A stretch of DNA of 33,806 nt from an uncultured virus (IMG/VR IMGVR_UViG_3300036961_000217) (lineage: Duplodnaviria; Heunggongvirae; Uroviricota; Caudoviricetes): the IMG/VR virus record IMGVR_UViG_3300036961_000217. One strand, written 5' to 3'. The notes beneath the pieces are model-generated. The model was not told the DNA's origin. It ran no database searches and saw only the letters and a program-made list of their open reading frames with translations. The position numbers were made by a program, and so were the translations under genes. This document shows, piece after piece, positions 583-33,806 of the stretch; the first letter of the stretch is position 1, and every line of letters starts with the position of its first letter.

Positions 583-583
583 A

Positions 584-1087: not shown

Positions 1088-1096
1088 GGAGGCATA

Positions 1097-2281: not shown

Positions 2282-2328
2282 CCGAAAATGATATATTTAT
2301 AAGAATCTGGACATAAAAGGGGTAAAGA

Positions 2329-3294: not shown

Positions 3295-3997
3295 TGTAAA
3301 AGTAATCAATGATATTCGAGCACATGCTATGCAAGAATTTCCTAACGAATGTTGCGGTATTGTGGTTGATAATCAATATATCCCACTAATTAATCGACAT
3401 GAAATACCATCTGAACATTTTAGAATAGAGCCAAGAGATTATTTGCCACTTATCACAAATCACGAATTTCAAGCAGTAGTTCATAGTCATGTTAATGAAA
3501 AAGATTGGCCATCAGTTAGTGATCAAGAATCACAAACCAAAATGAAGGTTCCTTGGGGGATCTGTATAGCCCGCGAAAATTGGGCCTCACAGCCGTTTTG
3601 GTTCGGTGATCAAGCACCTATTCCTCCTATTCGGAATCGTGAGTTCCGTCATGGTGTAACAGATTGTTATGGATTGGTAAGAGACTGGTATAGGGTACAT
3701 CGTAATATTCTTCTTCCTAATTTTATTCGTCAAGACGATTGGTGGGAGAAGGGAGACAATCTACTGGAAGACAATTTTGGAAAGGCTGGTTTTGCACCAA
3801 TTGAAAGAAGAGAGCTAAAGAAAGGCGATGCTGTATTAGGAAAAGTTGTGTCAAAGAAGACAAACCATTGTGGTGTCTATATGGATGGACATATGATTCT
3901 TCATCATTTGCCTAAAAGACCAAGTAGGATAGACATGCTTGGACCTTATGAGAGACACAAACTTATCACCCATTATTTGAGGTATGTCGGATGCTAA
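3287..3997 (+). CDS. Tail assembly protein, lambda gpK-like (JAB/Mov34 + NlpC/P60)
   Basis: JAB motif E..HSH..PS..D (ECCG, HSHV, PSVSD). NlpC/P60 motifs DCYGLV, HCGVY, LHH. Confidence 0.92.
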   Translation: MFNVKVINDIRAHAMQEFPNECCGIVVDNQYIPLINRHEIPSEHFRIEPRDYLPLITNHEFQAVVHSHVNEKDWPSVSDQESQTKMKVPWGICIARENWASQPFWFGDQAPIPPIRNREFRHGVTDCYGLVRDWYRVHRNILLPNFIRQDDWWEKGDNLLEDNFGKAGFAPIERRELKKGDAVLGKVVSKKTNHCGVYMDGHMILHHLPKRPSRIDMLGPYERHKLITHYLRYVGC

Positions 3998-4677
3998 GAG
4001 ATATTTATTTGTATGGTGATCTAGCAGATAAATTTGGATCACATCATCGTTATGCCGCTAAATCTATTCCTGAAGCAATGTGGGCTATTCATGCCAATTC
4101 TGACTGGAAGTTCTTCCAAGCTATTAAAAGGGATGGAAGATATCATGTAGTTCATGGTCCTTCATTGGAAAGTGACGAGTCAACTTTCCTTGGTGAAAAA
4201 CAACTGATTATGCAATTTGGTCCAGGGACTTTTCATATTGCCCCAGTTATAGAAGGATCTGGAGGTGGTGGTAGTGGCAAGGCCATTGGGATGGTTGTTC
4301 TAGGTGTTGCTCTCATGGCTACCGGAATTGGTGGTGCGGCATATGCCGCTGCACAGGCTGGAGTTGGCTTTGGGGCTGGTTTTGGGCTGACTGCTTTGGG
4401 TACTGCTGGTAGCTTTCTTTCCATTTCATGGGGAGGAATAGCTGCGATAGGGACTGTTCTTGCACTTTCTGGCGTATCACAAATGCTGACTCCAACACCA
4501 GAGATAACATCGTATGATAATGTTATAGAATCTGAGAAGCATCGTAAATCATGGATCTTTAATGGTCCTCGTAATTCTATTGAGCAAGGTGGATGTATCC
4601 CAGTGGTATTTGGGAGACACTGGGTTGGATCAACAGTCGTATCGGCAGGCATTGATATCAAAGAGGCAAAGCTATGA
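3991..4677 (+). CDS. Tail assembly protein, lambda gpI-like
   Basis: LYGDLADKFG start, APVIEGSGGG, Gly/Ala-rich hydrophobic middle, FNGPRNSIEQGGCIPVVFG..VGSTVVSAGI. Lies between K and J. Confidence 0.9.
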   Translation: MLRDIYLYGDLADKFGSHHRYAAKSIPEAMWAIHANSDWKFFQAIKRDGRYHVVHGPSLESDESTFLGEKQLIMQFGPGTFHIAPVIEGSGGGGSGKAIGMVVLGVALMATGIGGAAYAAAQAGVGFGAGFGLTALGTAGSFLSISWGGIAAIGTVLALSGVSQMLTPTPEITSYDNVIESEKHRKSWIFNGPRNSIEQGGCIPVVFGRHWVGSTVVSAGIDIKEAKL

Positions 4678-10600: not shown

Positions 10601-10883
10601 TGGGCCTGGCTCTGGCAGTCCCACCACGGATGGCACCTATCAGGAACTGCTGACCTGCCAGGAAAACAAGATCGGCTTTTTTGCGGGAACCCCAGCAGTC
10701 CAGCAAGTGCTGGCAGCTTACACGTCCGACCCGGAGAGCTCGGCCTACACCACCACCGGGAGTGGATCGGACATTGCCAGCAAGGCCGACCTGAACACTT
10801 TGCGCGCGGCCTATGAGACCCTCCGGGCAATGTGCGAGGATCTGCGCACAAAGCTCTTGGCTACCACCTTGATCAGATCTTAG
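4674..10883 (+). CDS. Tip attachment/host specificity protein, lambda gpJ-like central tail fibre, with tandem repeats and a long fibre-like C-terminus
   Basis: Gly-rich N-terminus, EVLCEGPI.GL, WTDNPAW, RFGLG, AKYCD, GCNSYSQAVRYGRW, FN3-like segments. Fibre-type C-terminal motifs (GTSSYAARRDHVH, TAAGRALLDDANAADQRTTLGLG). Confidence 0.92.
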   Translation: MISGGGGGGKGGGGRGGGGSGPVRASSRKADPYRQSLRSHAVAEVVEVLCEGPILGLAAEVDEGEASRGKSIAFDDTPLMSANGSENFTGCSVRLRTGTANQNPIKTNYGISTTISFDPPPELTEVGVTREINLPDADSLKILLYAPAFYGQKKRDGSFYDASVWFSILVNGYQAYHTGFSGQTTGAYQRQYELSNLQQFGSNPWTIQIVLDKGYHHSNQTYRKDRIYWTGVVGVTGEQFSWPYVAHTSIRVGAKQFGGNVPSRAYEIYGYAKCPMPNVYDPNSTDENRFSGSWDGETWKYEWTDNPAWCWLTMLTNERFGLGVSIDDLGILKWQLCKIAKYCDGFLTGTTERRWTFNAVIQTQEEAYHMLNSMASAFLAYPIWASNEVLIMQDAPDDPDNPADVNPTHIANQANVAGGSFNYSGSAINARHTVARITWNDPDDFGRPAIAYYENVQGIKRYGWRPKDVVAMGCNSYSQAVRYGRWVIDTELNAGDVVTFVGDMSFGDCAPGCRFAVMDPHFADARFGGRLVSATSDESNTYLTLDAEVTLAVDTTYTIHFVMPMDSESIPDERQDQSTQIVSETILNSPQTTNTLTIALQSSLPEANAYWYISEPNLNPRYFTCIANEPQEGMQYKITGLYHDYSKYGRIYDDVIIPVAPESYVPSGIVAAPTNFTATEYSYESGNNWRPGVALAWSHIDDARVMYYQVDRKRLDADEEKTHWHNIGDTEDCSFNIEPCRAGNWSFRVRGMGVLNGEWAEIESFTVIGKTVDPPDVKNVRVRGGGTTFSTRALHLEWDTVIGEDYMPESRFLHYQVNVYDTDDNLKLIRRVQEEYVKINFSELNEHFSQALAQLKVSVVAVDIYRNKSENPTVITVTCALPPDVENLRVRGGGTTFSTRALHLAWRTVIGRGIPESRFLHYRIDIYDTDDNLKLTRTVTEEYVKITFSELNEHFGSALTQLKVSVVAVDIYYNESENPTVITVTCAVPPDVDNLRVRGGGTTFSTRALHLEWDTVIGEDDMPEPRFLHYKVNVYDTDDNLKLTRTVTEEYVKITFSELNEHFGQTLTQLKVSVVAVDIYHNESETPTVITATCALPPDVDNLRVRGGGTTFSTRALHLVWGTVIGRGIPGPRFLHYRIDIYDTDDNLKLTRTVTEEYVKITFSELNEHFGSALTQLKVSVVAVDIYHNESETPTVITVTCALPPDVDNLRVKGGGTTFADRDCHLEWTDVVDSAAMLAGKFKRYRINIYDTDNNLKWTRFSTKNEYSFTRGMNLKAFGGLRRTFKVGLVAVDIYGRISASETVITVSNPPPDMSAFTPTIKELTTGLRIVWKDWNDASDPDLKQFRIYCDTNNPPTTLVARVAANRDRYKHDDGIKSYASHYVKIVPYDEFGEGIGSIVAASTGQDVDIDKPIEIASSGKLIAGEVTGARVEYSSEALAGYSDETTKEFEISSTDGKIKAGGGAVTIGANGVSIKMGSQSSNSLAWMSEACIASGTDGAEYTCIKNHIASTVNKPVTGANWSTYWENTGESSLVGWYEGRYYHVAGLDAAAILLANDDDYAMTSLETRGDLIGADSLTRVLARCGSGQKAQVILRVNDSWIELTDEDGDVLLDLKNIPLTTAAQITSTKATGAPFVIESATVCTNLNADMVDGKHAGGANGLATLGAGGLVPTSQLGTGTADNTVFLRGDGTWQATGAGASFNDAEGDPAKIGTAADGTSSYAARRDHVHACDDATTSVKGLASFSSTYFDVTTGVVSIKAAGVPYARIQNVSATDKILGRVSAGAGSIEEITCTAAGRALLDDANAADQRTTLGLGSANDVYHNAVFCGSTHPATMSNGGFSIKGSAGTWTFGYAFLGSAGTHIGTFGAYGSSDTLTRYYLGIYNTGELLSVTSTGLVGIGVMAPTYNLEIGCGDARHFGVQRQTASNTGGNNLNIYGGSATVAATNKNGGSLRLRPGLCTGSGYGQVQIYGCLGPGSGSPTTDGTYQELLTCQENKIGFFAGTPAVQQVLAAYTSDPESSAYTTTGSGSDIASKADLNTLRAAYETLRAMCEDLRTKLLATTLIRS
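6993..8603 (+). repeat. Five in-frame tandem repeats (324/321/324/321/321 bp) in gpJ
   Basis: Units start at PPD codons 6993, 7317, 7638, 7962 and 8283, with consensus PPDV.NLRVRGGGTTFSTRALHL.W...YDTDDNLKL...VVAVDIY. Units 1-4 are highly similar in DNA; unit 5 is diverged. Confidence 0.95.
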
Positions 10884-10892
10884 GAGGTTGAG

Positions 10893-11162
10893 ATGAACAG
10901 TTCCGAGAAACACAATGAGATTCTTCGTATCAGGCGGGCAGCAACCGGTTTGACCAATGCCCTGGAAGAGCTCCAGGCGGCAAAGATCAATTGGACCTAC
11001 CTCGATATGGGAAATGTTTTGGCCGATAACGATTTCATCGAACAAAACAGCGGTCTTACCGTAACCGACCTGGCCAACGTGGTCGGCACCACCCTGACCG
11101 CTATCGAGGCCCTACTGGCACAGGGGCACGGCACCAACCTTTACAAGATCCGAATCAGATAG
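10893..11162 (+). CDS. Hypothetical protein (possible tail fibre accessory)
   Basis: AGGAGG RBS, directly after gpJ, 89 aa. Confidence 0.7.
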   Translation: MNSSEKHNEILRIRRAATGLTNALEELQAAKINWTYLDMGNVLADNDFIEQNSGLTVTDLANVVGTTLTAIEALLAQGHGTNLYKIRIR

Positions 11163-11171
11163 GAGATTTTC

Positions 11172-11408
11172 ATGCACTTGGACGCAATTCGAGTTGAGGC
11201 CCACTACAGCGCCCTGCTGGCCGAACGAAGCAACATGATCGTCAGCCTGGTCGGTCAAATCGAGGAATTGCAAGCCAGAATTGCCGACCTGGAGCAGCAG
11301 GTGGCGCAAGCCAAAGACGGCACGCCTGACACGGTCGCCCAACTAGACAGCGATACCACCCGCAAGCGTCAAGACAGGCCCAAGCCGACTGCCCAAGAGG
11401 CATCGTAG
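11172..11408 (+). CDS. Hypothetical coiled-coil protein (possible fibre chaperone)
   Basis: AGGAG RBS and heptad-like IEELQARIADLEQQV. Last gene of the + block. Confidence 0.65.
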   Translation: MHLDAIRVEAHYSALLAERSNMIVSLVGQIEELQARIADLEQQVAQAKDGTPDTVAQLDSDTTRKRQDRPKPTAQEAS

Positions 11409-11610
11409 CCTGCCTGATGTTTCAACTGATATGTCAATCTCACCACCAGGAGCCATGACATGAGCCCATAACGCAGCCTCATCACCCGGCATCTCCCACG
11501 CCACCACAGGCGTGACGGGCCTCCCACCATTGGCCTGCCGGGAGCCATAGCCATCCCACCCAATCAGCCAAAAGCATCCCTGCCAAGCAGCACGCTACAC
11601 CCTCTGCGAC

Positions 11611-12669
11611 TCAATACTCAAATGGAAGTTCTTTGCGCTGGAACCCAGCCGCTCCCAAGTGGCCACCGCCACCGAAAGACTTAGCGATTGCCCCGCAGTC
11701 AACGTCAGGTTTGGTACTGTAGAGGCTGACGTCCCAGAGCTTGTCTGGGCGGCGAACAAAAGGGATCATGAGGTCGTAGGGCTCTATGTAGCCGGTGCCT
11801 TTGCAGACTGGGCATGGTTCCATTTTGCTCTCACGTGTGTCAGATCTTACTGACAATACAGGCTCGCCCTCACAGTAGCACTTCCTCCTCCACACCGAAT
11901 CAAACACCTTGCTGTCGGTATCGCCGAGATTGACGGCGATGGCACTATATTCAGGACGAACTTTTAATGTTTTATCTTCCGGTTTTGGGACTTGGAGGAT
12001 CGTTTCAAACGCATACGTCTTCACATATTTCGCTTTGTTAGCTTCGTCGTAGCGAAGGAGGAGACGGCCCTCTTCGATAAAATTGGTCATTGATTTTCCT
12101 ACCCATGAATACTCTAGGTGGCTTATATAGAAAAAAGAATACCACCACTTTCCAGAACTATCCCAATCCTTCGGGTCCAAATCTTCCATCCTCATTCGCA
12201 TCTGGAATGGCAGAACCATGTCCTCAAGTTCGTGGCCATGATACGTCCAGGAATCGTAAAGACTGAGCAGTTTGACGGCCAACGGAACCGGACGATTGGG
12301 GAACAGGTATTCCCAAGTGAGTTCGCAGGCAGCTTTGGATACACCTGTCCTGCCATAAGGATAACATCCAATATCCTCCATAGCTTTTATTGCCGATACA
12401 TGATGGTCTATCCAACACAGATTACCATCCCGGTCATGCTCTTTTTCTTCGTCACTCCTTAGCACTTCATACAGTTTCAACATTTGATGTTCCGGCTGCA
12501 AACAGAAGTCCACCATAAAGACTTCATCGTCTTCCGCAATCTCGCCCCAAGGAAACTCATCTCCGTAGTTGATTGGATACATCACCGCTTCGGGGAATCG
12601 ATACTTTACGATTGCACCTGAGCAGTAGCCGTCAAGATCCTGGTTGTGGTAGAAGACTCTAATTGTCAT
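11611..12669 (-). CDS. DHH-family phosphoesterase with DHHA1 domain
   Basis: Motifs YH..DLDG, VDF, WIDHH, AACELTW and terminal SLYS...AKSFGGGGHLGAAGF. Confidence 0.9.
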   Translation of the reverse strand: MTIRVFYHNQDLDGYCSGAIVKYRFPEAVMYPINYGDEFPWGEIAEDDEVFMVDFCLQPEHQMLKLYEVLRSDEEKEHDRDGNLCWIDHHVSAIKAMEDIGCYPYGRTGVSKAACELTWEYLFPNRPVPLAVKLLSLYDSWTYHGHELEDMVLPFQMRMRMEDLDPKDWDSSGKWWYSFFYISHLEYSWVGKSMTNFIEEGRLLLRYDEANKAKYVKTYAFETILQVPKPEDKTLKVRPEYSAIAVNLGDTDSKVFDSVWRRKCYCEGEPVLSVRSDTRESKMEPCPVCKGTGYIEPYDLMIPFVRRPDKLWDVSLYSTKPDVDCGAIAKSFGGGGHLGAAGFQRKELPFEY

Positions 12670-13105: not shown

Positions 13106-13678
13106 TCATTTTAATTCAAATAATTTATCTGCAGACGAAATGAATTCTGGAATATGCGTCGTCATTATTACTTGAATTCCAAGCTTTTCTGACAACATCT
13201 TAATCATTTCGGCTGCTTTAGGTTGGTAGTTCCTAGAAAGATTCTTCATCGGTTCGTCTAAAATTAAAATTCTCCTGGATTGACTTAGCATAACGAAAGC
13301 CAATCTTAAAGAGAAACTGATAACGTCTAAAACCCCTCCTCCAACACTATCTGATGGAACCATCTTCTCTCCATTGCTTTCTAAGAAAAGATCACATTCC
13401 ATCTTATTTCTTCTCTTGACAAACTCAATTTTAAAATCATATGGTTCATCGAAGATAGCGTTTAAGGCCAGAGATACAATTCTACCTATGTTTTGCTCGA
13501 TTGACTTTTGAGTGTCTTGAGCAACATGGAATAAAATCTCTCTAGCCTTAATTGCCGCAGAATGTCGAGACTCGTATTTCTTCCTCTTTGATACGAGTTT
13601 ATCTGCTGACTCACAAAGAATATCCCTGCGAGTCAGCAGTTCATCGACTTTCCTCCTCAATTCCTTGCTATGCAGCAT
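13106..13678 (-). CDS. SbcC/Rad50-like ATPase, C-terminal half
   Basis: Coiled coil, signature-like SVGGG, Walker B ILILDEP and H-loop MTTH. No Walker A. Confidence 0.85.
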   Translation of the reverse strand: MLHSKELRRKVDELLTRRDILCESADKLVSKRKKYESRHSAAIKAREILFHVAQDTQKSIEQNIGRIVSLALNAIFDEPYDFKIEFVKRRNKMECDLFLESNGEKMVPSDSVGGGVLDVISFSLRLAFVMLSQSRRILILDEPMKNLSRNYQPKAAEMIKMLSEKLGIQVIMTTHIPEFISSADKLFELK

Positions 13679-15425: not shown

Positions 15426-16562
15426 CTATTCCATCAAAATTGATTTCATTATTGATATGTCTGCCTTGTTGCCGCACATTGGACATATCGGATTTTGCTC
15501 AAATAATTTTATGTATTCTTTTATATTGGCATCCCTTTCCTTGGCATGGTTTTCTAATGCTTCTGTAATATATAGCACATCTTCTATAATTAAATCAAGA
15601 GAATCAAACTTAGATAGAGTTAGATCATATTCTTCTATCATTTCATATACAGGTTTAAGCTTTTCCCATTCAAGTATCAAATCCTGTGTTTCATTGACAT
15701 CGCATTGTCTTAGTCCTACAATTTCCACCTCTTTGTATAGGTCTTCATAATCTTCCTTGTAATCAAGGTATTCTTGTATGCTTTTTGAAAGATCTTTTAA
15801 TTGCTTCTCTATCTTTAGATCGTCTTTGGAAGATTTGATCAGTCCCTCAATATCTTCTATATAACTAATATAATCTTCCAGAAAAGCAATGTCATCAAGT
15901 AAAGTTGAATATTCAACTTCCCACTTCTCAAGTTCTTTAAGTTCATTGTCTGTATTGTCTATAAATTGTAATTGACATATTTCTTCTCGTACAGATTCGA
16001 GTTCCTTACTTGTCTCTTCCAATTTACTTTTAGCTTCAGATATTATTCCATCGCATCTTTTTCTAACAATGTCTATTGAATCAAGGTTTGTCAGTTCATT
16101 GATCTTTCTTGCTACCTCTCCAGGAGAATCGGTCAAAAGAAATAAAGGATCGTGTTGATTTTGAACACTATATTGAGAAATGTTGATGAGTTTCGAAACC
16201 TTCTCTGGAACATCTCGATTTAGGGCAGAAAGGAATTCTGACTTTCCATTGACTTGGACCAGATATCCATTCTGTCCATTACTTAATTCGTCTCTTGCTC
16301 GTGATACTTCATCCTCTTCAAAGCAAAGAGAATACTGCGTGACTTCTGATTTAGCTATTGGGCGATTTCCATCTCCTGATTTTCGTGGATCATGTCTTAA
16401 AGCCGCCCATGATCCACGATTATCTTTGACCCAAGTGAAGCCACGGAGGATTGAAGTCTTTCCACTGTCCGTTGGAGCATGAATTACATTTACACCAGGA
16501 TCTAAATCAAGATTAAGAGATCGGTGTATTTGCAAGTTCCGTATTTTTATTTTCGATATCAT
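15426..16562 (-). CDS. SbcC/Rad50-like ATPase, N-terminal half ending in a zinc hook
   Basis: IKIRNLQIH start, Walker A APTDSGKTS, Q-loop QNQHD, acidic coiled coil, terminal CPMCG. Confidence 0.85.
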   Translation of the reverse strand: MISKIKIRNLQIHRSLNLDLDPGVNVIHAPTDSGKTSILRGFTWVKDNRGSWAALRHDPRKSGDGNRPIAKSEVTQYSLCFEEDEVSRARDELSNGQNGYLVQVNGKSEFLSALNRDVPEKVSKLINISQYSVQNQHDPLFLLTDSPGEVARKINELTNLDSIDIVRKRCDGIISEAKSKLEETSKELESVREEICQLQFIDNTDNELKELEKWEVEYSTLLDDIAFLEDYISYIEDIEGLIKSSKDDLKIEKQLKDLSKSIQEYLDYKEDYEDLYKEVEIVGLRQCDVNETQDLILEWEKLKPVYEMIEEYDLTLSKFDSLDLIIEDVLYITEALENHAKERDANIKEYIKLFEQNPICPMCGNKADISIMKSILME

Positions 16563-16713
16563 CAAACACCTTTATGACATGTTTATCTAAATGTCGTTTA
16601 ATTATGTTTCCATCTTTGACTTTAACCTTAATAGTTTTATCATTGATGCTTTGAATAATTCCACTCTTAGTGGACGTTCCCAATCTAAAAACTGCCACGT
16701 CACCTATTCTCAT
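16513..16713 (-). CDS. Hypothetical small protein (SH3/KOW-like pattern)
   Basis: GGAG RBS and MRIGD.A.F...GII..I....IKVK pattern. Confidence 0.55.
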   Translation of the reverse strand: MRIGDVAVFRLGTSTKSGIIQSINDKTIKVKVKDGNIIKRHLDKHVIKVFDDIENKNTELANTPIS

Positions 16714-22196: not shown

Positions 22197-22778
22197 TTAT
22201 TCTCCTTGTTTTCTTCTCGCTCGTCTTTTTATTGTCTCATTTGTCTTTTCTCTTGATCTCTCCTCTAGTTCTCTTTCTCTTTTGTTTTCAATTTCCTCCT
22301 TCAGTTCTGTAGGAAGCTTTGCGCTATAGAAACCACTCACCATTAATTTTGTGAGATTGTCCATAGCTGACTTCCTATGTTCAAATGCTTCTTTCGCTCC
22401 TTTAAAGACATTGATCTTGTGTTCTGCCTCTGCCATTACCTTGTTGAAATCATCACAAATAAAACGATAATTATCTAAGGCTTTTTGATACTCATCACGA
22501 CTGATCACCCATACTTCTCTTAATTTGTCACTGGGTGACTTTGATAATCCATGATCTTTATAGTTGGTAAGGATTTTTAACTCAAGTTTAGCTCTTACCA
22601 ATTCAAGATCGTCTTTCGCCTGTGACTTCTCAAGATCATATTTTGATTTGAGTTTATCCCTTTCTTCGATAGCATCTGCATGAGCTTCTGCATATTTTAG
22701 AAATCTATTTGGATGATCTTCCAATAAATCAGCAAGCTCATATTTGTTGATTTCAAGTTCGTCATGAAAATCACTCAT
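22197..22778 (-). CDS. Putative UvsY-like recombination mediator
   Basis: All-helical pattern ELEIN..L..P...Y and GA.EAF.HRK..M resembles UvsY. Near SSB and RecA. Family call is weak. Confidence 0.45.
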   Translation of the reverse strand: MSDFHDELEINKYELADLLEDHPNRFLKYAEAHADAIEERDKLKSKYDLEKSQAKDDLELVRAKLELKILTNYKDHGLSKSPSDKLREVWVISRDEYQKALDNYRFICDDFNKVMAEAEHKINVFKGAKEAFEHRKSAMDNLTKLMVSGFYSAKLPTELKEEIENKRERELEERSREKTNETIKRRARRKQGE

Positions 22779-22974
22779 TAGGAACTTCTTTCTTTTCAGC
22801 TTCTAGTCGGCTGATTTCTAATTCTAACCACTTATCAAGTTTTTTAAATACTGATTCATTCATAACAAGTAATTCAGATTGTTTAAATAAAATTTCAGCC
22901 TGTTTCTTTACATTAGTATTATTAATCATTGCTGTTTCATTCACAAGATCATTATATTCTTTTATGTCCATCAT
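22771..22974 (-). CDS. Hypothetical protein
   Basis: Overlaps both neighbouring genes, 67 aa. Confidence 0.55.
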   Translation of the reverse strand: MMDIKEYNDLVNETAMINNTNVKKQAEILFKQSELLVMNESVFKKLDKWLELEISRLEAEKKEVPNE

Positions 22975-23500
22975 ATCCCCCCTATAGCCTGGACTTTGTC
23001 ACTGAAGAATTTAATTCCCCTTTCAAATTCACTCTTGTTTTTGTTTGAGTGCAAAATAGAAGCAGGGTGCAAGCAATAACAAACATAACATCCATAATCT
23101 TCATTCCATTCTATTGTCGCATTCTTCTTCGTTATCCCTTTGTCTTCTCCTGTAAAGAAGTACATTGCAGTTTTTCCTGAAGCCAAAATAATGAACGGTT
23201 TGACCTGTTCGATTTCTTCCTTAAGCCATCCACTACAAGCCTCGACATGCTCCTTATTTGGAGTTTTGGTTTTCTTCGGGAAACATTTGCATGTGTTTGT
23301 GACATGAAATAGTGTTCTATCCAAATCGTATTTCCCCAATTCAGACCAAATGACTTTTCCTGCGGGACCGACCAAACCAACTCCTTGCCTGTCCTCGTAA
23401 GCCCCAGGTGCCTCCGCAATGATCATCATGTTGTGATCAGAAGGGCTGGGCGAGACAGGTCTGGCGCATTCCGCTCTCAAACCACATTTCCTACAATCAA
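22971..23500 (-). other. Family-4 (Fe-S) uracil-DNA glycosylase domain of DnaE
   Basis: CRKC, AEAPG..E, VGPAG, TNTCKCFP, EAC..WL..EI..VKP, LHPA. Confidence 0.88.
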
Positions 23501-26500
23501 GGAGTTCTCCGTTCAATTTGAATTTTGACTGCTGCACACAAAGACTCAGTTCAAACTCACCTCTTAAAGCACTTTCTATTATATCATCATTTTGCGAATA
23601 TCTTCCAAGAATTTTCAAGAGTTTTGGGTATGCTTCCCTTGGATCTGCTAAGAGTTCGAAATCAAAGTATCTTAATGCTTCCTTGGGTAATTTGGCATGT
23701 GGGTCGAAAGCCCTTATGTTCTCCAAGGTGGTTTGGACACTCGGAGTAAAACTCCTCTCCTCTGTGATGAGTTTCTTGCCCTTTTTTCGGATTCGACCTC
23801 CAGCAGCGATTTCTACTGCCATTTTCTCGCCAACACCGTGAATGGCATTGAACGGGAGATACAATTTGTTTCCGTCTGCTTTCCATCTTAATGCATCCGA
23901 GATCCCAATCTTGGGAGGTATTAATTGCAATCCCATCGATCTTGCATCTTTAATCATCTCTGGTATATGTTTCTCAGTTCCATACGTTAGAAATGCAGCC
24001 ACATATTCTGTTGGATAATATACTTTTGTATACAATGTCCAATAGCCAAGAACAGAGTAGCTAAGGGCGTGAGATAGATTGAAGCTATAGGAAGCATGTT
24101 CTAATAAACCTTCCCAAAATTCATTTACTTCTTTTTCAGACATGGTTCTTTGCTTATAACATCCTTTTGCAAACATATCCTTATATGGTTCAAACTCTTT
24201 AGCGTCTCTTTTTTTACCAATAATCTTTCTGATTTTATCTGCAATAGGATATGGCAGTCCTGCTACTTTATGAAAGATATTCATTACTTGTTCTTGGTAT
24301 GTTATACATGAAAAAGTATCTTTTGTAACTTCTTCATATATAGGATGTTTTTTCTCCCAATTACCTCCATTCTTTCTCCTGATATATTCATCTAGCATCC
24401 CACTGTTTGCGGGTCCAGGTCTTCCTAATGCAACTGCGTCTGACCATTCAAGGATGTTGTTTACTTTTGATTTTCGTATTACATCTTGAATTGCCCACCC
24501 CATTTGAAATATACCAGTGAAATTTCCATTATTGAGTGCTTCATAAACTTTTGGATCGTCCAATGGGATCTTGCTATAGTCCAAATCAAGATTATAATTT
24601 TCTTTGATTAGATCGTGAGCATAGTTTAGTACAGTTAATGTTTTCAGACCTAAAACATCCAATTTGAGCAGACCTGCATGTTCGCAATCTGACATGTCCC
24701 AACCAACAACAATATTGTTTCCTCTTTCTGCTAAATATGTTTGTCTCCCATCTGATAGTGATTCATTAGATATAACGGCTCCGGCAGCATGTCTCGAATA
24801 ACCTCTGCATTGTCCTTCAAGTTTCAAAGCATGTTTAATGACATCTGGGTGCTTATAATGGAACATCTGCTGTTTTATATCTTCTTTTTTCTTCTCTCTT
24901 TCCTTATCTCTTTTATTGTTATCTATTTCCTCGCATTTTTTCTGATATTGTTCAACTTCTAGATCAATTGCGTCTTGTACTGATTTATCAACAGATTTGG
25001 CGAATGTGTCTACTTCTTTTAAATCAATATCAAATACTCGTGCTACATCTCTAATTACCAATCTTGCTTTCATTTTCAAGAACGTTGAAATACCAGCGAC
25101 ATTTTCATTTCCATATGTGTCTCTAAGATACTGAATCGCTTCTCCTCTTAAGGTGTCTGGTATATCCATATCGATATCTGGCAGATCAATACGTTCTTCA
25201 TTAATAAAACGAGAAAACAATAGTCCGTACTTGATTGGGTCAACGCCAGTAATTCCAACCAAATATGTGACAAGAGAACCAGCAGCACTCCCTCGTCCTG
25301 GTGAATAAACAGAACTATGTTTTTTTACCCAATTTATGAAGTCCCAGACAATGAGAAAATACCTGACAAATCCTTTAGATTTAATGACAGATAATTCGTA
25401 ATCCATTCTTTGTTCGTATTCAAGTTCAAACAGACTCCCTATTTTATCGTAGTATCCTTTAACGCAAAGATTCTCAAGAAATGCGAATTCGTCTCCTGTG
25501 ACGCTAGGAGGAAGTGGAAGATGAACTTCCTGTTTTGAGATTTGAAATCCACTGCATTTTCTTGCAATCTCAACAGTCCTCTTCATAGCGGGAATATAGA
25601 TCGATCTTGGAAGTTTTTGCTTGGAAAATCCGCTGATCATTTCATCTGCGGTTGCTAAATGGAGATTGTGAAAATCAAACTTCCATCGGTTTGGATCATT
25701 CCATTTTGCTCCTCTCTGAATAGCCAGAAGAACCTCTTGTGATTCTTCGTCTTCTGGAAGGACGTAGTGGCAATTATGAACAGCTAATCCATTTGCGATA
25801 TAAGAATTGTCATTTTCCACTTCCATATTATATAATGGTTCTTTTAAATCAACTATTTGAATCTTGCTTAATTTGACCCCGAAAAATAGAGAATTTTCTA
25901 CATATCTTTTGCGAAAGCATTTAATTGTTGATAATGTATTTTCGATCTCTAAAAAACGACATAATATCACATATTGATAACCGGTTACATTAAGACTATA
26001 TAGATTTTTCCATTGTGATGGATTTGCATTTGGATTTTTATGCGTGGTATCCTGATGGGTTGTAATCATTGGAAGCGAAATAATTCCAATCGCATTAAGA
26101 ATGGCCATGATTTCGTAGCATAATATTTTCGATGTCGTACAAGCAGCAGTAATCGCTGATTTTTTTGGTATAATACGTCCATCGGAAGTGATATACCCAA
26201 ATAATATCCTAGACATTTGTTTTTCCGAGAACAAATTAAATGGGCCTACTCCATTGATATATGGCAAGTGTTTGTTTCTTGCCCCGTTCCCACATACCTT
26301 GCAAAAGAATTTTGAAAATACAGAACTTGTAATTATAGCTGCTATACAATTTTCTTTTTTTACGATATAAGGGGAAAAGCCAAAAGACGTAAAATAATCT
26401 ATTATAATATCTATTTGCCATTTTTTATCAATATGAGTTGAAAATCCAATATTGTATCCGTCAACATTTCCATTCGCTATATACATCCCAATAATTTCAA

Positions 26501-27584
26501 GTAAACTTTTGTTTACTGGTAGATATCTAGGAATATTAATTCCTTTCTCTATTGATCTAGTTGTATTAAAATATTCATTACCAAATTGGTCTGTAACTAT
26601 TCCATTTTTACCCATACCGCAAGGTATTCCACAAATAGAAACAAGATCGATTTTTGTTAGATCATGTTTTGAAAATACAATATCCCTTTTAATTTTAGGT
26701 GAAATTAAATAATCTGTATTGTCAAGATCCTTAACTCGTTTCCATTTAAAATCATACATTGTCTTGTAAATCGTGTTGTATTTACATGTAAAATATGGAT
26801 GATTTTCAGACACTCCTCCTGACAAACTTCCAAGAGTGGTTTTAATTGAAAATATTTTCTCGCTTTTTTTGACCTCTCGCTTTCCAACTCTTTTGATCTT
26901 TTGAAAATTTCCATTATGGGTAATTACGATATCTCCATTTCTGATATCTCTAATTAATTTAGTCCCATCTTTGGTGTAAATCACTGTATCTCCAATAAAA
27001 CAATCATGCGTAGCCACCAGTGGAATTCCATAGTCTTCTGAGATTTCCAAACAATCCAGATTCCATTCTATCTGCAATGGATGATTGTGGGGCATGATCT
27101 CAATATAAACTTCAGCTTGATCAGCCAAATCCTCACAGAAAAATTTCTCTCCATGGTCGGGCTTCATAACAGAATTAACACAGCCTGACATGAAAATGAG
27201 ACCGTCCGAATGCTTTAAAACTTGTTCGTAATCAACTCTTGGTCTTTTGTGAAATCCTACTAGATGGGCATAACTGCACATTTTCAAGAGATTGTGCCAT
27301 CCAGTTTCATTCTGTACGAGCATTGTTAAGTGTCTTGGCTTCTCTTTTGTATCTCTTGCATCTTGGCAGACATACGCTTCCATTCCAATAATTGGAATTA
27401 TTCCTTCTTTCTTGCATTCATCTTGCCACTTTAAAGTTCCTGCAACATCTCCATGATCTGTGATAGCTAAATATTCATATCCAAGTTCTTTTGCTCTTTT
27501 GGCATATTGCTCTGGTTTGCCCATTCCGTCGAGCAACGAGTGTTCACAGTGAGTGTGCAGGTGAACAAAATATCTATTATCCAC
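22971..27584 (-). CDS. dnaE: DNA polymerase III alpha (family C) with intein and C-terminal family-4 UDG domain
   Basis: PHP motifs HLHTH..SLLDG and AITDHG; GRGSAAGSLV; PDIDMD; HAAG; KLDVLGL; YQEQVM; YSFNLSHA. Probable GTG start at 27584 after GGAG. Confidence 0.95.
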   Translation of the reverse strand: MDNRYFVHLHTHCEHSLLDGMGKPEQYAKRAKELGYEYLAITDHGDVAGTLKWQDECKKEGIIPIIGMEAYVCQDARDTKEKPRHLTMLVQNETGWHNLLKMCSYAHLVGFHKRPRVDYEQVLKHSDGLIFMSGCVNSVMKPDHGEKFFCEDLADQAEVYIEIMPHNHPLQIEWNLDCLEISEDYGIPLVATHDCFIGDTVIYTKDGTKLIRDIRNGDIVITHNGNFQKIKRVGKREVKKSEKIFSIKTTLGSLSGGVSENHPYFTCKYNTIYKTMYDFKWKRVKDLDNTDYLISPKIKRDIVFSKHDLTKIDLVSICGIPCGMGKNGIVTDQFGNEYFNTTRSIEKGINIPRYLPVNKSLLEIIGMYIANGNVDGYNIGFSTHIDKKWQIDIIIDYFTSFGFSPYIVKKENCIAAIITSSVFSKFFCKVCGNGARNKHLPYINGVGPFNLFSEKQMSRILFGYITSDGRIIPKKSAITAACTTSKILCYEIMAILNAIGIISLPMITTHQDTTHKNPNANPSQWKNLYSLNVTGYQYVILCRFLEIENTLSTIKCFRKRYVENSLFFGVKLSKIQIVDLKEPLYNMEVENDNSYIANGLAVHNCHYVLPEDEESQEVLLAIQRGAKWNDPNRWKFDFHNLHLATADEMISGFSKQKLPRSIYIPAMKRTVEIARKCSGFQISKQEVHLPLPPSVTGDEFAFLENLCVKGYYDKIGSLFELEYEQRMDYELSVIKSKGFVRYFLIVWDFINWVKKHSSVYSPGRGSAAGSLVTYLVGITGVDPIKYGLLFSRFINEERIDLPDIDMDIPDTLRGEAIQYLRDTYGNENVAGISTFLKMKARLVIRDVARVFDIDLKEVDTFAKSVDKSVQDAIDLEVEQYQKKCEEIDNNKRDKEREKKKEDIKQQMFHYKHPDVIKHALKLEGQCRGYSRHAAGAVISNESLSDGRQTYLAERGNNIVVGWDMSDCEHAGLLKLDVLGLKTLTVLNYAHDLIKENYNLDLDYSKIPLDDPKVYEALNNGNFTGIFQMGWAIQDVIRKSKVNNILEWSDAVALGRPGPANSGMLDEYIRRKNGGNWEKKHPIYEEVTKDTFSCITYQEQVMNIFHKVAGLPYPIADKIRKIIGKKRDAKEFEPYKDMFAKGCYKQRTMSEKEVNEFWEGLLEHASYSFNLSHALSYSVLGYWTLYTKVYYPTEYVAAFLTYGTEKHIPEMIKDARSMGLQLIPPKIGISDALRWKADGNKLYLPFNAIHGVGEKMAVEIAAGGRIRKKGKKLITEERSFTPSVQTTLENIRAFDPHAKLPKEALRYFDFELLADPREAYPKLLKILGRYSQNDDIIESALRGEFELSLCVQQSKFKLNGELLDCRKCGLRAECARPVSPSPSDHNMMIIAEAPGAYEDRQGVGLVGPAGKVIWSELGKYDLDRTLFHVTNTCKCFPKKTKTPNKEHVEACSGWLKEEIEQVKPFIILASGKTAMYFFTGEDKGITKKNATIEWNEDYGCYVCYCLHPASILHSNKNKSEFERGIKFFSDKVQAIGGI
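25773..27002 (-). mobile_element. 410-aa intein with LAGLIDADG-type homing endonuclease
   Basis: Junctions ATHD|CFIGDT ... LYNMEVENDNSYIANGLAVHN|CHY. Block B S.NHPY. LAGLIDADG-like IIGMYIANG and ILFGYITSDG. AT-rich. Confidence 0.93.
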
Positions 27585-27845
27585 AATGTGTTTTCTCCAA
27601 TTCTTTTTTAAGGATAGCATATGTTTCAGGATGGATATACATATTATTACCAGATATATAAGCCTCTCTCCTTGCGATTGTTTTATAGTTCTTTTTGTCC
27701 TTCTTCCATTTTTTTGCTATACGTTTGCTCTTGCATCTTGGAAATCGAAATTGGACAGCTTCTATTAAAAACTATTTTGGAGTACTTTCATACCATATAT
27801 TTTATCTACCATATATGGGCCTGTATTGATTTCTTGATTATTCAT
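27577..27845 (-). pseudogene. Small gene frameshifted in a T5 run (+ strand A run 27767-27771)
   Basis: MNNQEIN...LQNSF* as read. One extra T gives an 89-aa ORF (...LIEAVQFRFPRCKSKRIAKKWKKDKKNYK...HPETY...CG*) that overlaps both neighbours by 8 nt. Confidence 0.7.
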
Positions 27846-30385: not shown

Positions 30386-30649
30386 CTATTTTGGCAACCT
30401 ATGTAAAACATGTGTTTGCATTCTGACCTTCTCTATGCTTTTTTCAAGTGATAGGATTTTCTTTGACTTCATATACTCGAATTGTTCAATAGCACTTTCC
30501 AAATCCCAATGCCAATCTGGTTTTGTATAGTATGACCAAGGATTCCCAACATTTCTTTCCTTAATGATTGCTAGAGCACCTTCTACTTTATATAATTCCT
30601 TCTCGTAAATACCAGACTTAAGAGCGTCCTTGGTCACATATACAATCAT
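30386..30649 (-). CDS. Hypothetical protein
   Basis: VYVTKDALKSGI...W...ESAI...KKILSLEKSIEK, ATGA-coupled to the upstream gene. Confidence 0.65.
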   Translation of the reverse strand: MIVYVTKDALKSGIYEKELYKVEGALAIIKERNVGNPWSYYTKPDWHWDLESAIEQFEYMKSKKILSLEKSIEKVRMQTHVLHRLPK

Positions 30650-31149
30650 AATTCAAACTCCCTCATAAGAATATCTGCATGTTTGATAACAAATTCAGCT
30701 TGACCATTATATAGTCCAATTTTAGTTGTAACAATCTCCTTGATGCCAGCATTAATGCACATTTGAATACACCTCAAGCAAGGAGTTGCATTGACATAAA
30801 GTGTTGCGTCCCTAGTAGATACTCCAGATCTTGCTGCCTGTACAATTGCATTCTCTTCGGAGTGGTTCGCTATACAAATATCCAAACCTTCTCCAGACTT
30901 ATATCCTAAAACTTTTCTTGGACAAGTATAAATAGCAATACCAGATGGAACCGCAGGAAGCTGCTTTTTTAAATATTCATCTCTAGAATATCTAATAGAA
31001 CAATCTGGTATTCCTCTAGCTGGCCCATTATATCCAGACGAAATAATGGCCTTGTCTTTTACTATGATGGCCCCAATTTTCCTGGAATAGCACTTGCTAT
31101 TCTCTCCTACTACTTTGCATATTTCAAAGAAATATTGATCCCAAGTCAT
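30646..31149 (-). CDS. dCMP deaminase
   Basis: TWDQYF, SRKIGAIIV, SGYNG, HSEENA, PCLRC. Confidence 0.92.
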   Translation of the reverse strand: MTWDQYFFEICKVVGENSKCYSRKIGAIIVKDKAIISSGYNGPARGIPDCSIRYSRDEYLKKQLPAVPSGIAIYTCPRKVLGYKSGEGLDICIANHSEENAIVQAARSGVSTRDATLYVNATPCLRCIQMCINAGIKEIVTTKIGLYNGQAEFVIKHADILMREFEL

Positions 31150-31610
31150 TATTTGTTTCCTTCGTTCCATCTACCCCATGCAAGAGCTGCATAGTGAGCT
31201 ATCTTCAAGAAATCTCTTACTTGCTCCTCGTCTCCTCTCATATTTTTGCCATACCTTTTGACATACTTCTCAATCGCTTTGATACAGTACATAGCATTTT
31301 CTGCAGAGACACGATCATCTGACGAGTCACCGTACTGGGGGATTGTATACTTGACAATGTGTTCCTCAACCAATTTTGAAAACTCTTTCCAACCTATAAA
31401 CTTTTTATTCCAATCTTCCATTGCTAACATTGAATGCAATGCAATTTCAACAAAATAACTTATTTGATATTTATCTCTGTCATTTTTGTCGTATTTTTTT
31501 ATTAGAGCATTTATCATATTGATATGATCTGTCCTACAATCGTTCTTACTGACTTGGCGTTCTTCCAATAAACTTGAGAACTCTTTCCATTCTGATACTC
31601 GATCAATCAT
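31149..31610 (-). CDS. Hypothetical protein with internal duplication (DUF3310-like motif)
   Basis: KYVKRYGKN...RDFLKIAHYA. Located between TS and dCMP deaminase. Confidence 0.6.
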   Translation of the reverse strand: MIDRVSEWKEFSSLLEERQVSKNDCRTDHINMINALIKKYDKNDRDKYQISYFVEIALHSMLAMEDWNKKFIGWKEFSKLVEEHIVKYTIPQYGDSSDDRVSAENAMYCIKAIEKYVKRYGKNMRGDEEQVRDFLKIAHYAALAWGRWNEGNK

Positions 31611-31619
31611 TTTATTCTC

Positions 31620-32351
31620 CTATTTTCCATTTATTTCATCCAGAAACTTTGCCACATATCCATCTTTCCTTCTTCTTGCTTCAGCAAGTTCCCATACATA
31701 TCGATACAAATGCAGCCCTTTAGAACAAGCTACTGTTTCTCCTGGATCAACACCAATCTCTTCAGCCATGTATTCCTTAAGAATTTGAAGACCTGCTAGA
31801 TTAGCAGGAGTACCACCAAACAAATCCCAACTTCTCCACATTGTATAGAAATGAAGTTTGTTATCTTGAACTCTACTGTCAATTACTTGTAAGCATGGTG
31901 GGTCGTTTAATAACATATCTCCAGGTTTTGCAATATGCATACAAAGTTGATTATTACGAATCTTACCTGTTTTATATTTAGATATTACGTGTTCGATTTG
32001 GTTGAAGGGAGAAATCAAACGACTGCCATATGAATATGTTTCATTCTCCTTCACTTTGTCGGTCATGAGATAAAGGATGTATGGTTCTCCCTTGAAATTC
32101 GGATCATCGCCAAGAATATATCCAGGTTCAATTGGATCTGGGATTCCAAGCTCAGGAGGAAGACGAGGTTCAAGTGGCCTTGTTTCTGGGTGTGTGATTT
32201 GAATTGTAACAAAATCAAATTCAAGCCGATAATCTCCAGCAAAACTCCCCTCGTCAATCTTGAAAGGTCTTCCTTCTTCCAAGATCAACATGATCAATTG
32301 ATTCCATGCATCTGGTATGTCTGTAGCCTTAACGAAAACTGGGTTCAACAT
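31620..32351 (-). CDS. Thymidylate synthase homologue (short, archaeal-type-like)
   Basis: YSYGSRL, NQIE, catalytic PPCLQ, RSWDLFGG.PAN (Asn indicates dUMP type), LHLY. Confidence 0.85.
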   Translation of the reverse strand: MLNPVFVKATDIPDAWNQLIMLILEEGRPFKIDEGSFAGDYRLEFDFVTIQITHPETRPLEPRLPPELGIPDPIEPGYILGDDPNFKGEPYILYLMTDKVKENETYSYGSRLISPFNQIEHVISKYKTGKIRNNQLCMHIAKPGDMLLNDPPCLQVIDSRVQDNKLHFYTMWRSWDLFGGTPANLAGLQILKEYMAEEIGVDPGETVACSKGLHLYRYVWELAEARRRKDGYVAKFLDEINGK

Positions 32352-32352
32352 T

Positions 32353-33806
32353 CTATTTCCTCTCCGAGTCAACCAATGCATTTCCTGTCATCATATGTTG
32401 CAATACAATGACCTCATGTGCCTCGTTAAATAATCGATACCTATTTTTTACAACATTGAATCTTACTTCGCCAGACTCCTTCTCCTCATTGGTCTGCATA
32501 AACCCAAAAATGAAATCTGCATGAGCATAATTTGCCCTAGCAGAACCAGAGGCGTCTCCCATCTGCGAGTATCTTCCCCTCTCCTTTAGCACATGTGTTT
32601 TGACCTGTGAAACTGTAACCACCATAGCCTTGCGTTCAAAAGCCATCCCTGCCAGAGCCATCATTGTTTTATTTAATCTTACTTCGTCATTGTCGTTTAC
32701 ATTGTGATCTTCAGGAGCCATGATTTCTCCGTAATCCACGACTATCAGATCGGGGACAAAATCTTCCGAGTATTCCAGAAGATCCAGATCCCTTTTCATG
32801 TCGGATGTGTTTGCAGAAAATTTGGGATAGCATTTGTAACGATAGACATCTCCATATGAACGATTGAATGCCCTCATACGACTTGAAAGGTAATCCATCG
32901 TGATGGTCTCTCTGACAATCGGTTCGTACCACGATTCAGGTTCAAAATCATTGTCGATTCCCCTGCAGACATTGCAAATCCGATAGTCAACAGGAGCCTT
33001 ATCCCACCTTGGCTTGATGTCGTCATCTGAATATAATTTTACCCTGTTCTTTCTCTCTTTCTTGGGGCAAGCATCGATCTGATTCAGACGACAATCAAAG
33101 ACCGGATACAAAAATTGACTTTCCTCCTCATTCCTTCCTGTGAGAATTCTATAATACCTCTTTGCATTTTCTTCTTCTGACATTTCAAGATTGAATTCGA
33201 CAACCTTGAATCTCTCTTTCATTGCAAGGGTCTCAACAATCTTAAGGAAGTTTGATTTTCCAGAACCATAAACTCCCTGCCCAATAATCAGCCAGCCACG
33301 ATTCCACCAACCGAATAAATCGCCTAAAGCTCCAGGAAAAAGAATCATCCTGTTTTTGTCATCGCTCTTATAAACTGTCTTGGCGAACTCAATATCATTA
33401 GGATTGACCCATCCAGAGGTTTGTTTTGATATTTTTTTGAAATTTGTCCATACCTCTTCCGCTTCTTCTACTTTATCAAGTTCAGATAAAGATTTTACTT
33501 TTGTTGAGATGTCAAGTAAGGCTCTTTTGCGAAAGTATTTAACTGCTTTGTCAATTACAAATTGTTCATTAAATGTCTCGTCATATTTATCATCAAGTTG
33601 TTGAAGAAAAGGTCCGATTAAATTCACATCATCATCATTGAGTTTGTTCTTGTAGACTTCATAGAGGTCGTTTATGTGTTCTACTGGAGCTTCTTGGTAT
33701 TGATCAAAATATTCTTTTACCCATCCATATACCGTTCTCACAAATGGCACAGAAAATAATTCAAAACGAGCTATTGGAACGATCTCTTTGAGAAAGTTTG
33801 TATTTG
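32353..33806 (-). CDS. Replicative helicase, DnaB/SF4-like (5' truncated by window)
   Basis: Walker A GVYGSGKS, FNLEM, VVDY, TVSQ, HAD, VVKNR. Confidence 0.88.
   Translation of the reverse strand, partial: NTNFLKEIVPIARFELFSVPFVRTVYGWVKEYFDQYQEAPVEHINDLYEVYKNKLNDDDVNLIGPFLQQLDDKYDETFNEQFVIDKAVKYFRKRALLDISTKVKSLSELDKVEEAEEVWTNFKKISKQTSGWVNPNDIEFAKTVYKSDDKNRMILFPGALGDLFGWWNRGWLIIGQGVYGSGKSNFLKIVETLAMKERFKVVEFNLEMSEEENAKRYYRILTGRNEEESQFLYPVFDCRLNQIDACPKKERKNRVKLYSDDDIKPRWDKAPVDYRICNVCRGIDNDFEPESWYEPIVRETITMDYLSSRMRAFNRSYGDVYRYKCYPKFSANTSDMKRDLDLLEYSEDFVPDLIVVDYGEIMAPEDHNVNDNDEVRLNKTMMALAGMAFERKAMVVTVSQVKTHVLKERGRYSQMGDASGSARANYAHADFIFGFMQTNEEKESGEVRFNVVKNRYRLFNEAHEVIVLQHMMTGNALVDSERK

Follow-up and report, generated by a model that had tools for sequence, protein, structure and literature searches.

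Within IMG/VR record IMGVR_UViG_3300036961_000217, a 33,806-nucleotide stretch of DNA from an uncultured tailed phage (the window, by which we mean the whole stretch analysed), a single minus-strand gene joins a family-C, DnaE-type DNA polymerase III (Pol III) alpha subunit to a C-terminal uracil-DNA glycosylase (UDG) of the iron-sulfur (Fe-S) family-4 type. Its product would be the replicative polymerase of a phage of wastewater and digester communities. We propose, with a probability of roughly 60%, that the UDG domain is an active glycosylase acting in step with replication. This proposal draws on the strict upkeep of catalytic and cluster residues, on the closeness of the domain to proven family-4 enzymes, and on the precedent of family-A polymerases. 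The DnaE-UDG architecture as such is already known; judging from the sequences, what is new is a catalytically intact, Fe-S-bearing form of it.

The gene is one open reading frame (ORF) of 1549 amino acids (aa) and a stop codon, with no internal stop in the ORF list or in the translation (Table 1). Thus, the initial annotation was right in reading one uninterrupted frame from the DnaE core and its helix-hairpin-helix (HhH) motif into the UDG. The segment that it singled out, 22971-23500, corresponds to the stop codon plus residues ~1374-1549, that is, to the UDG domain. Pfam recognises PHP (residues 20-154, E 3.4e-35, 122 bits), DNA_pol3_alpha (714-991, E 2.5e-78, 264 bits), DNA_pol3_finger (994-1157, 135 bits) and UDG PF03167 (1395-1532, E 4.9e-21, 75.7 bits against a cut-off of 24.3). 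The protein therefore has what defines a DnaE-type family-C enzyme: a PHP domain, a Pol3 palm with its catalytic aspartates, and fingers. PDIDMD (814-819) and KLDVLGL (986-992) are kept across our alignment A1, in which H20, H22, D31, H56, E81, H97, C147, H178 and D206, which we take to be the PHP metal ligands, are invariant. The general Pol III alpha model of NCBIfam (TIGR00594) scores 729 bits, over its cut-off of 434; the DnaE equivalogs stay under theirs (e.g. NF004226, 724 vs 1002), and the NCBIfam DnaE models align as far as residue 1273. PHROG assigns the protein to phrog_405, DNA polymerase (E 9.7e-268), with the profile matched only to position 941 of 1190, so that the C-terminal part usual in phage DnaEs is left unmatched. 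At the place equivalent to the HhH, Pfam HHH_6 is found in 9 of the 22 relatives scanned; in this protein there is none at E <= 0.01.

Table 1. Layout of the polymerase-glycosylase gene in the window.
Feature	Position	Strand	Basis
Whole gene: intein-containing DnaE-type Pol III alpha with C-terminal UDG	22971..27620	-	ORF, Pfam, NCBIfam, PHROG
PHP domain, N-terminal part, residues 1-206, ending ...VATHD	27003..27620	-	Pfam PHP
Intein, residues 207-617	25770..27002	-	Pfam Hint_2 and Intein_splicing, NCBIfam intein_Cterm
Remainder of PHP, then Pol III alpha palm, thumb and fingers, residues 618-1157	24150..25769	-	Pfam
Post-fingers region with helix-hairpin-helix, residues 1158-1284, AIHGVGEK at 1259-1266	23769..24149	-	sequence, NCBIfam
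Linker, residues 1285-1375, with YFDFELLADP motif and no OB fold	23496..23768	-	Pfam, P0002 model
Family-4-type Fe-S uracil-DNA glycosylase domain, residues 1376-1549	22974..23495	-	Pfam UDG, AF2, Foldseek

The fusion is real and not an artefact of assembly. A 1.8-kb stretch across the junction is present in at least 20 public runs from at least 15 studies of wastewater, activated sludge, anaerobic digesters and biogas fermenters. We compared the contigs of four of these runs over 22800-27700, and those of two independent metagenomes bridge DnaE and UDG without indels, which answers the call for read support made when the fusion was first noticed. One single contig (X6) covers 22969-27155 and another (X13) 22969-27284, each with 44 substitutions and 0 gaps, and contigs of an RNA library (X4) span 22800-23907; coverage is interrupted over 23631-23719 in the fourth run (X5) and over ~26080-26735 in X4, but we read no meaning into either gap. 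Third codon positions take 17 of the 20 substitutions listed for 23049-23538 (57 further differences fall outside that listing), as would be expected if the domain is translated and under selection. At 27534-27540, close to the gene's 5' end, one X5 contig carries an insertion and a deletion of 1 base each, separated by 6 bases; either one strain has compensating frameshifts or the contig, at depth 7, is in error.

The rival view, in which assembly or gene calling has hidden a stop or frameshift between two genes, can for practical purposes be dismissed. Beyond the gap-free contigs, which come from different studies' runs, 71 of 80 related IMG/VR loci have UDG and polymerase core together in a single ORF (8 others are cut by the end of the locus), and a 1236-aa fusion ORF lies on an unrelated contig of a metagenome-assembled genome (MAG) too. 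We found no support for an artefact, but the one remaining locus (L079) and an A. baumannii phage-plasmid do have the parts in separate ORFs.

The fusion had been put forward as the best candidate for a new system in the window, and in this respect the initial annotation did not hold. In fact, a C-terminal DnaE-UDG is described in the main text of an earlier study (Timinskas, Balvociute, Timinskas and Venclovas, NAR 2014, PMC3919608), and the architecture is common in metagenomes. A HMMER search with residues 1285-1549 against 1.84 billion cluster representatives gave 16173 matches at E <= 1e-3 and 155 at E <= 1e-30, and phmmer finds a DnaE core as well in 110 of the best 150 representatives of 50%-identity clusters. 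The other 40 are at most 514 aa long; the few short UDG-matching representatives that we inspected (alignment A2) begin within the DnaE linker and thus look like fragments. Pfam finds both UDG and Pol III alpha domains in 22 of 22 chosen relatives, and a word-indexed search limited to long proteins found two other fusions. In IMG/VR, a scan with residues 1285-1549 as a single sequence gave no matches and an alignment-based scan gave 136 stretches with a relative, from which 80 loci were kept for counts; the larger records include five of 92-183 kb, four of them with direct terminal repeats.

Among 50,697 GenBank phage records, an intact C-terminal DnaE-UDG fusion was not found in the matches that we inspected. 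With the full-length query, the best 40 of 1399 matching records reach query residue 1343 at most, and none covers 80% of the query. The UDG-only query matches 19 records at 27-39% identity, and we inspected four of these: PhiF1 and MW202455 are N-terminal UDG fusions, and Moorella phage MTATph1 and MT836940 have stand-alone UDGs. Two MAG contigs among the GTDB genomes carry the fusion, both from MAGs labelled archaeal, but we draw no host from these labels because a phage contig can be mis-binned. The 84.6-kb contig JBHLRA010000001.1, from a MAG labelled Candidatus Thorarchaeota, encodes a 1236-aa fusion of the intact type and may be either a mis-binned phage contig or an archaeal virus. Across engineered water systems, many uncultured phages carry the intact DnaE-UDG form.

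What sets this form apart is the state of its glycosylase. All UDG motifs first quoted for the protein, together with the HhH, are in the translation: CRKC at 1376-1379, AEAPGAYE at 1402-1409, GLVG at 1415-1418, TNTCKC at 1441-1446, C1462 and HPAS at 1518-1521. The cysteines C1376, C1379, C1446 and C1462 have the CxxC ... C-x15-C spacing of a 4Fe-4S site and all align to cysteines of 4zbx and 1ui0, so that cluster binding is predicted; motif A of family 4, GE(A/G)PG..E, the Asn of TN..KC and motif B, HP(S/A), are all represented. These residues are kept with little exception in the family: Cys at 1376 and 1379 in 143/143 ungapped sequences, Cys at 1446 and 1462 in 153/153, and, across 153 sequences, Glu1403 in 143, Asn1442 in 142 and His1518 in 141. 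The seven key residues are jointly retained in 125 of the 143 sequences that cover the UDG domain. Since a published phage-plasmid lineage has lost its catalytic residues, the intact state seen here points to selection maintaining the catalytic and cluster residues of this clade.

The predicted fold agrees. An AF2 model of residues 1340-1549 (mean pLDDT 92.5) finds its best Foldseek matches in M. smegmatis UdgX and in the family-4 UDGs of T. thermophilus, S. tokodaii and T. maritima, at TM 0.71-0.81. The family profile matches the S. tokodaii UDG at 7.8e-41 and T. thermophilus UDGA at 1.1e-39, with canonical family-4 enzymes ranging to 1.6e-37 and UdgX weaker at ~1e-28 to 1e-29, and the motif regions align gap-free to the canonical enzymes.

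Several observations weigh against an active glycosylase. In family-4 UDGs the Phe of the PFVG motif stacks on the uracil; here the motif reads GLVG, as had been noted from the start, and Leu1416 replaces that Phe. Of the 153 family sequences, 113 have Phe at position 1416, 26 have Leu and 4 have Tyr, and another key residue is lost in 7/25 Leu variants vs 7/106 Phe variants, although the protein of the window keeps every other key residue. The NCBIfam UDG models stay under their curated cut-offs (UDG_fam4, TIGR00758, 90.8 vs 125.3; Arch_udg, NF040953, 92.1 vs 250; UdgX, TIGR03914, 96.3 vs 189.95), which makes the domain a divergent member of family 4 rather than a textbook one. Five related, near-complete IMG/VR genomes were scanned for dUTPase, ligase, apurinic/apyrimidinic (AP) endonuclease, clamp and ThyA, and an ATP-dependent ligase and an ExoIII-type AP endonuclease matched in 0/5; repair of abasic sites would thus rely on the host or on bypass. 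Common and in print as the architecture is, no biochemical characterisation of a family-C fusion turned up in our full-text searches. Finally, the degenerate phage-plasmid lineage retains its UDG domain without the catalytic residues. Such catalytically dead tails persist, so a non-catalytic role exists, and it could be the main one here too.

The resemblance to UdgX raises a different prospect: the domain might sense uracil by binding or cross-linking, with no turnover, and stall the polymerase at a template uracil, much like covalent UdgX or the pocket with which archaeal family-B polymerases read ahead. UdgX structures are indeed the top Foldseek matches (E 1e-14), and the UdgX model is the highest-scoring of the NCBIfam UDG models. 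Yet this score is far under the cut-off, and the family profile favours canonical family-4 UDGs by the margin given above. The segment from TN..KC to the fourth Cys, where the cross-linking His loop of UdgX presumably lies, aligns gap-free to the S. tokodaii and T. thermophilus enzymes, so no extra loop is seen at that place. The domain has neither hallmark of UdgX, a TIGR03914 score over cut-off or the extra His loop, and we regard a pure sensor as very improbable.

The second peculiarity of the protein is what the glycosylase stands in for. The usual OB-fold and tau-binding C-terminus, a part that DnaE1 has and some DnaE groups lack, had been reported as not recognisable, and our searches agree: Pfam and NCBIfam find no OB or tau-binding domain in this protein, and the linker matches no Pfam family at E <= 1. 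At ~90 aa from the HhH to the first Fe-S Cys (92 aa), this linker belongs to the short class of a bimodal distribution, in which 78 of 114 relatives have fewer than 125 aa, 2 have 125-149 aa and 34 have 150 aa or more. One might guess that the extra ~100-aa module of these 34 is a retained OB fold; an OB family was found in 0/12 long linkers at E <= 1 and in 0/22 full-length relatives by Pfam. Many relatives share a linker motif, YF-x-F-x-(L/F)-(S/L)-x-DP (e.g. YFNFSLSRD, YFDFSLSNDP), which here reads YFDFELLADP (residues 1325-1334, 23618-23647 on the minus strand) and by eye resembles what we take to be the segment preceding the OB fold in ordinary DnaEs.

A full-length model of P0002, an intein-free natural relative, adds a structural view (mean pLDDT 89.7, pTM 0.77). 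Overall it superposes on Taq and E. coli Pol III alpha with Z 47. Its residues 1-889 follow Taq Pol III alpha up to chain residue 1016 (Z 47.2) and its residues 925-1108 follow T. thermophilus UDG 1ui1 (Z 24.2, rmsd 1.8 A over 180 residues). In between, the linker is modelled as a disordered segment (834-845) and then short helices, with no beta-barrel. The alignment to DNA-bound Taq Pol III alpha, 3e0d, reaches model residue 1060, inside the UDG, and chain residue 1079, whereas the other Taq alignments stop at 1016. This range is a weak hint that the UDG may lie where the OB fold lies.

To bring these features together, we propose that the family-4 Fe-S UDG, placed after a helical linker of ~90 aa, would stand where other DnaEs have their OB fold and tau-binding domain. 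Because it would travel with the polymerase, uracil arising from cytosine deamination or from dUTP misincorporation would be excised during replication. Replication-coupled uracil excision, as first suggested for this protein, stays the most plausible function by analogy with the family-A precedent, in which the main text describes an active polymerase-borne UDG (Missoury et al., NAR 2026, PMC13697223); the activity of the window protein is predicted. The likeliest substrate would be the stretch of single-stranded template immediately in front of the active site, as for the UDG of the SP15-like family-A polymerases. Such scanning of the template strand in front of the polymerase, which we derive from the OB replacement and from the analogy, is a tentative part of the proposal. 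A trimeric dUTPase matched in 0/5 of the related genomes, so these phages may have more need of uracil purging. In its widest form, the idea would be that a large clade of ~90-110-kb phages, apparently without dUTPase, exchanged the OB fold of its family-C replicase for an active, template-scanning Fe-S glycosylase; this is a possibility that we would not yet put at even odds.

An OB fold in DnaE binds DNA, and the position of the UDG in its place could also mean that the domain is mainly an intrinsic DNA-binding or processivity module, which replaces OB fold, tau and clamp contacts and for which excision is incidental or absent. Kazlauskas and Venclovas (PMC3201878) drew on vaccinia D4-A20 as an analogue to propose a role of this kind for the UDG domains that the SPO1 and T5 polymerases carry. 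The dead phage-plasmid tails, in which the UDG fold lacks its catalytic residues, would fit this role, as would the rarity of the beta-clamp domain PF02768, which matches in just 1/5 related genomes and under cut-off. But a pure structural role leaves the near-invariant Glu, Asn, His and four Cys unexplained. Moreover, the UDG fused to PolA, a subject of the same proposal, proved to be an active glycosylase according to the main text of PMC13697223. We hold a mainly structural function to be unlikely; in any case it does not exclude that of a glycosylase.

The surroundings of the gene bear on yet another reading, in which the UDG serves a thymidine-modified genome: with T replaced or hypermodified by way of an enzyme like a dUMP hydroxymethylase, the domain would clear unmodified dU against host UDG or restriction. 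This would refine, rather than replace, a glycosylase working with replication, and removal of unmodified dU on these grounds is proposed for SP15-like phages; some PolA-UDG phages have T-hypermodified genomes, according to PMC13697223. A divergent protein of the ThyA superfamily is encoded in the window (31620-32381, minus strand; Pfam 43.5 bits on a partial profile; methanogen-type thymidylate synthase TIGR03283 99.5 bits, under its cut-off of 174.55) and, near it, a dCMP deaminase (30646-31170, minus strand). In the same vein, the N-terminal UDG on a DnaE piece of PhiF1 adjoins a methanogen-type thymidylate synthase, and the N-terminal UDG polymerase of MW202455 adjoins genes annotated as pyrimidine hydroxymethylase and thymidylate synthase. 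The ThyA-like enzyme of the window may be either a thymidylate synthase or a dUMP hydroxymethylase; no feature separates the two. Within 10 kb of the fusion gene, the range of all our neighbour counts in the 80 IMG/VR loci, a ThyA-like gene occurs in 2/80 and a dCMP deaminase in 5/80, and any ThyA match is found in 2/5 of the related genomes, over cut-off in 1. The phage also assembles readily from many ordinary short-read metagenomes, whereas hypermodified genomes are hard to sequence, as stated in the main text of PMC13697223. The initial annotation had offered discrimination of modified from unmodified DNA as one option; the two window genes keep it in view, but both are rare in related loci and support for it is weak. 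That the UDG serves a thymidine-modified genome we think rather improbable.

One feature of the gene had been overlooked at first, an intein of 411 aa in the PHP domain. It starts at Cys207, ends with His616-Asn617 followed by Cys618, and sits directly after the conserved ...ATxD (here ...VATHD), beside an invariant His. Pfam finds Hint_2 at 207-254 (33.1 bits against a cut-off of 28.4) and Intein_splicing at 242-616, NCBIfam finds intein_Cterm at residues 596-617 (26.8 bits against 15.6), and the block is precisely missing from relatives P0002 (67% identical) and P0003 (44% identical). With the Cys start, the His-Asn and Cys end, the Hint fold and the precise absence from orthologues, it has what marks a class 1 intein, and splicing is predicted. 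The mature protein would then have ~1138 aa, in the order PHP, palm, thumb, fingers, HhH, linker and UDG. Two LAGLIDADG-like motifs are visible in the intein by eye only, with no match to an endonuclease family. The X6 and X13 contigs traverse the intein without a joint, and thus it is also present in those populations. Inteins occur at varied polymerase sites in 10 of the 22 relatives scanned by Pfam, those 10 having been chosen for length; relative P0069, of 2788 aa, carries five Intein_splicing stretches.

As a whole, the window comes from a tailed phage. Positions 1-11162 hold tail genes, namely those for the end of a tape-measure protein, for minor tail proteins and for a J-like central tail fibre of 2069 aa, and the minus strand from 11611 to 33750 forms a replication and recombination module. 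Together with the polymerase, the ThyA-superfamily protein and the dCMP deaminase, this module includes a DnaB-like helicase, an RlaP-like nucleotidyltransferase and a DnaG-like primase; a gp32-like single-stranded DNA-binding protein, a RecA-like protein, a 5'-3' exonuclease, a PDDEXK nuclease and an SbcCD-like nuclease; and a Ros/MucR-like protein, an HU homologue and a DHH phosphoesterase. Several of these partners recur beside the fusion gene: a RecA-like protein in 67/80 loci, a gp32-like protein in 52/80, the 5'-3' exonuclease in 43/80 and SbcD in 32/80. The protein directly downstream of the polymerase (193 aa, 22197-22778, minus strand) is a neighbour in 30/80; it is rich in charged residues, and its sole family match is a weak one to PHROG 1069, of unknown function.

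Two further observations concern other parts of the window. The SbcC/Rad50-like ATPase is split into two minus-strand ORFs, an N-terminal half at 15426-16565 and a C-terminal half at 13106-13678, which recur in 40/80 and 26/80 related loci respectively, with the SbcD-like nuclease, a 94-aa ORF and the Ros/MucR-like protein lying between them here. The GC content is 0.54-0.58 at ~8000-12000, that is, in the C-terminal part of the fibre ORF (4674-10883, plus strand) and beyond, vs 0.34-0.43 in the replication module; this stretch may be a recently acquired receptor-binding region.

What would an active, polymerase-borne glycosylase mean? Viruses are known to couple uracil removal to replicative polymerases in other ways: poxviruses and herpesviruses provide a UDG in trans to a family-B enzyme, and for family-A phage enzymes such coupling has been established since 2025-26. 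Read-ahead uracil surveillance has been invented in the uracil pocket of archaeal family-B polymerases and in the UDG coupling of family-A and poxvirus polymerases. If our proposal is true, the DnaE-UDG fusion would be a third independent invention, and the first in a bacterial-type replicase; polymerase-borne uracil surveillance would then be a general, convergent viral solution, and the loss of the OB/tau tail in some DnaEs would be explained. Since the whole system is a single chain, with natural relatives that are free of the intein, the idea is easy to test at the bench.

How does this protein compare with those already described? The literature on family-C UDG fusions came down to two papers of the Venclovas laboratory (PMC3919608 and PMC3201878, main texts); the latter points out that viral family-C polymerases differ from the E. 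coli enzyme in their C-terminal regions. The closest architecture is that of 'DnaEX', DnaE variants encoded by Yersinia pestis and Salmonella enterica plasmids in which a UDG domain replaces the OB fold and the C-terminal domain (CTD). In print since 2013/14, they are given one sentence, and no function, in the main text of PMC3919608. These plasmids are phage-plasmids of the SSU5/pHCM2/pMT1 type, and their polymerase has the same order as ours: PHP, Pol3, HhH and a C-terminal PF03167 UDG, without OB or CTD. In fact, the window protein has the DnaEX layout throughout, with PF03167 in place of OB and CTD after PHP-Pol3-(HhH)2. The differences lie in the DnaE cores, which share only ~36% identity, and in the tail. 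Against the profile of the window clade, the UDG tail of the E. coli phage-plasmid homologue (1172 aa) scores 36.5 bits and that of the A. baumannii homologue 67 bits, and both lack the Glu of motif A, the Asn and Cys of TN..KC and the His of HP, all intact in the window protein; at these three motifs the E. coli homologue reads ...LDNANG..., ...VCKKVKDK... and ...FNPN.... The intact form would allow comparison with the published degenerate form of enterobacterial phage-plasmids, whose tails, if our proposal is true, would be burnt-out descendants of the intact form. On the A. baumannii plasmid NZ_CP096765 (1682-5925), dnaE is annotated as two coding sequences with a NUMOD4 homing-endonuclease-like gene between them, the second, of 421 aa and labelled 'uracil-DNA glycosylase family protein', opening with the polymerase C-terminal region; this split suggests a mobile insertion inside dnaE.

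Methanobacterium virus PhiF1 (MK994522, ORF58/ORF57, depositor's annotation) also joins a UDG to a DnaE polymerase beside the methanogen-type thymidylate synthase. However, its UDG is N-terminal and lies on a distinct ORF of 447 aa, which the main DnaE ORF overlaps, motif A reads GLNPG and not GEAPG, and the virus is archaeal. With the free-standing family-4 UDGa enzymes (4zbx, 1ui0, 1vk2), the domain shares its fold (Z 23-24, rmsd 1.8-2.2 A for the P0002 domain), the four-Cys pattern and the motifs GEAPG..E, TN..KC and HPA; it differs from them in being fused to a polymerase, in the Leu for the PFVG Phe and in scoring under the NCBIfam cut-offs.

In function, the nearest relatives are the SP15-like family-A polymerases of YerA41 and phiLo. 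According to the main text of PMC13697223, which makes no mention of DnaE or Pol III, their N-terminal UDG is active, contacts the 5' single-stranded template in front of the active site and excises dU to leave abasic sites, which the polymerase bypasses mostly with dA. The window protein does not fall in this class, a family-A core with an N-terminal UDG, since it is of family C with the UDG at its C terminus; SP15-like phages also encode Pol X and a ligase for repair, as the same main text states, whereas the ligase and ExoIII-type matches are missing from the five relatives of the window phage. What the two share is a phage replicative polymerase joined covalently to a UDG with catalytic Glu and His, and the SP15-like UDG structure 9qhs_A is matched by both our model (Foldseek E 8.5e-07) and the family profile (1.1e-11). 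Thus, by analogy, we envision the SP15-like PolA-UDG as the likely functional analogue of the window protein, each linking surveillance for uracil with DNA synthesis, from the N terminus of a family-A polymerase in one case and from the C terminus of a family-C polymerase in the other.

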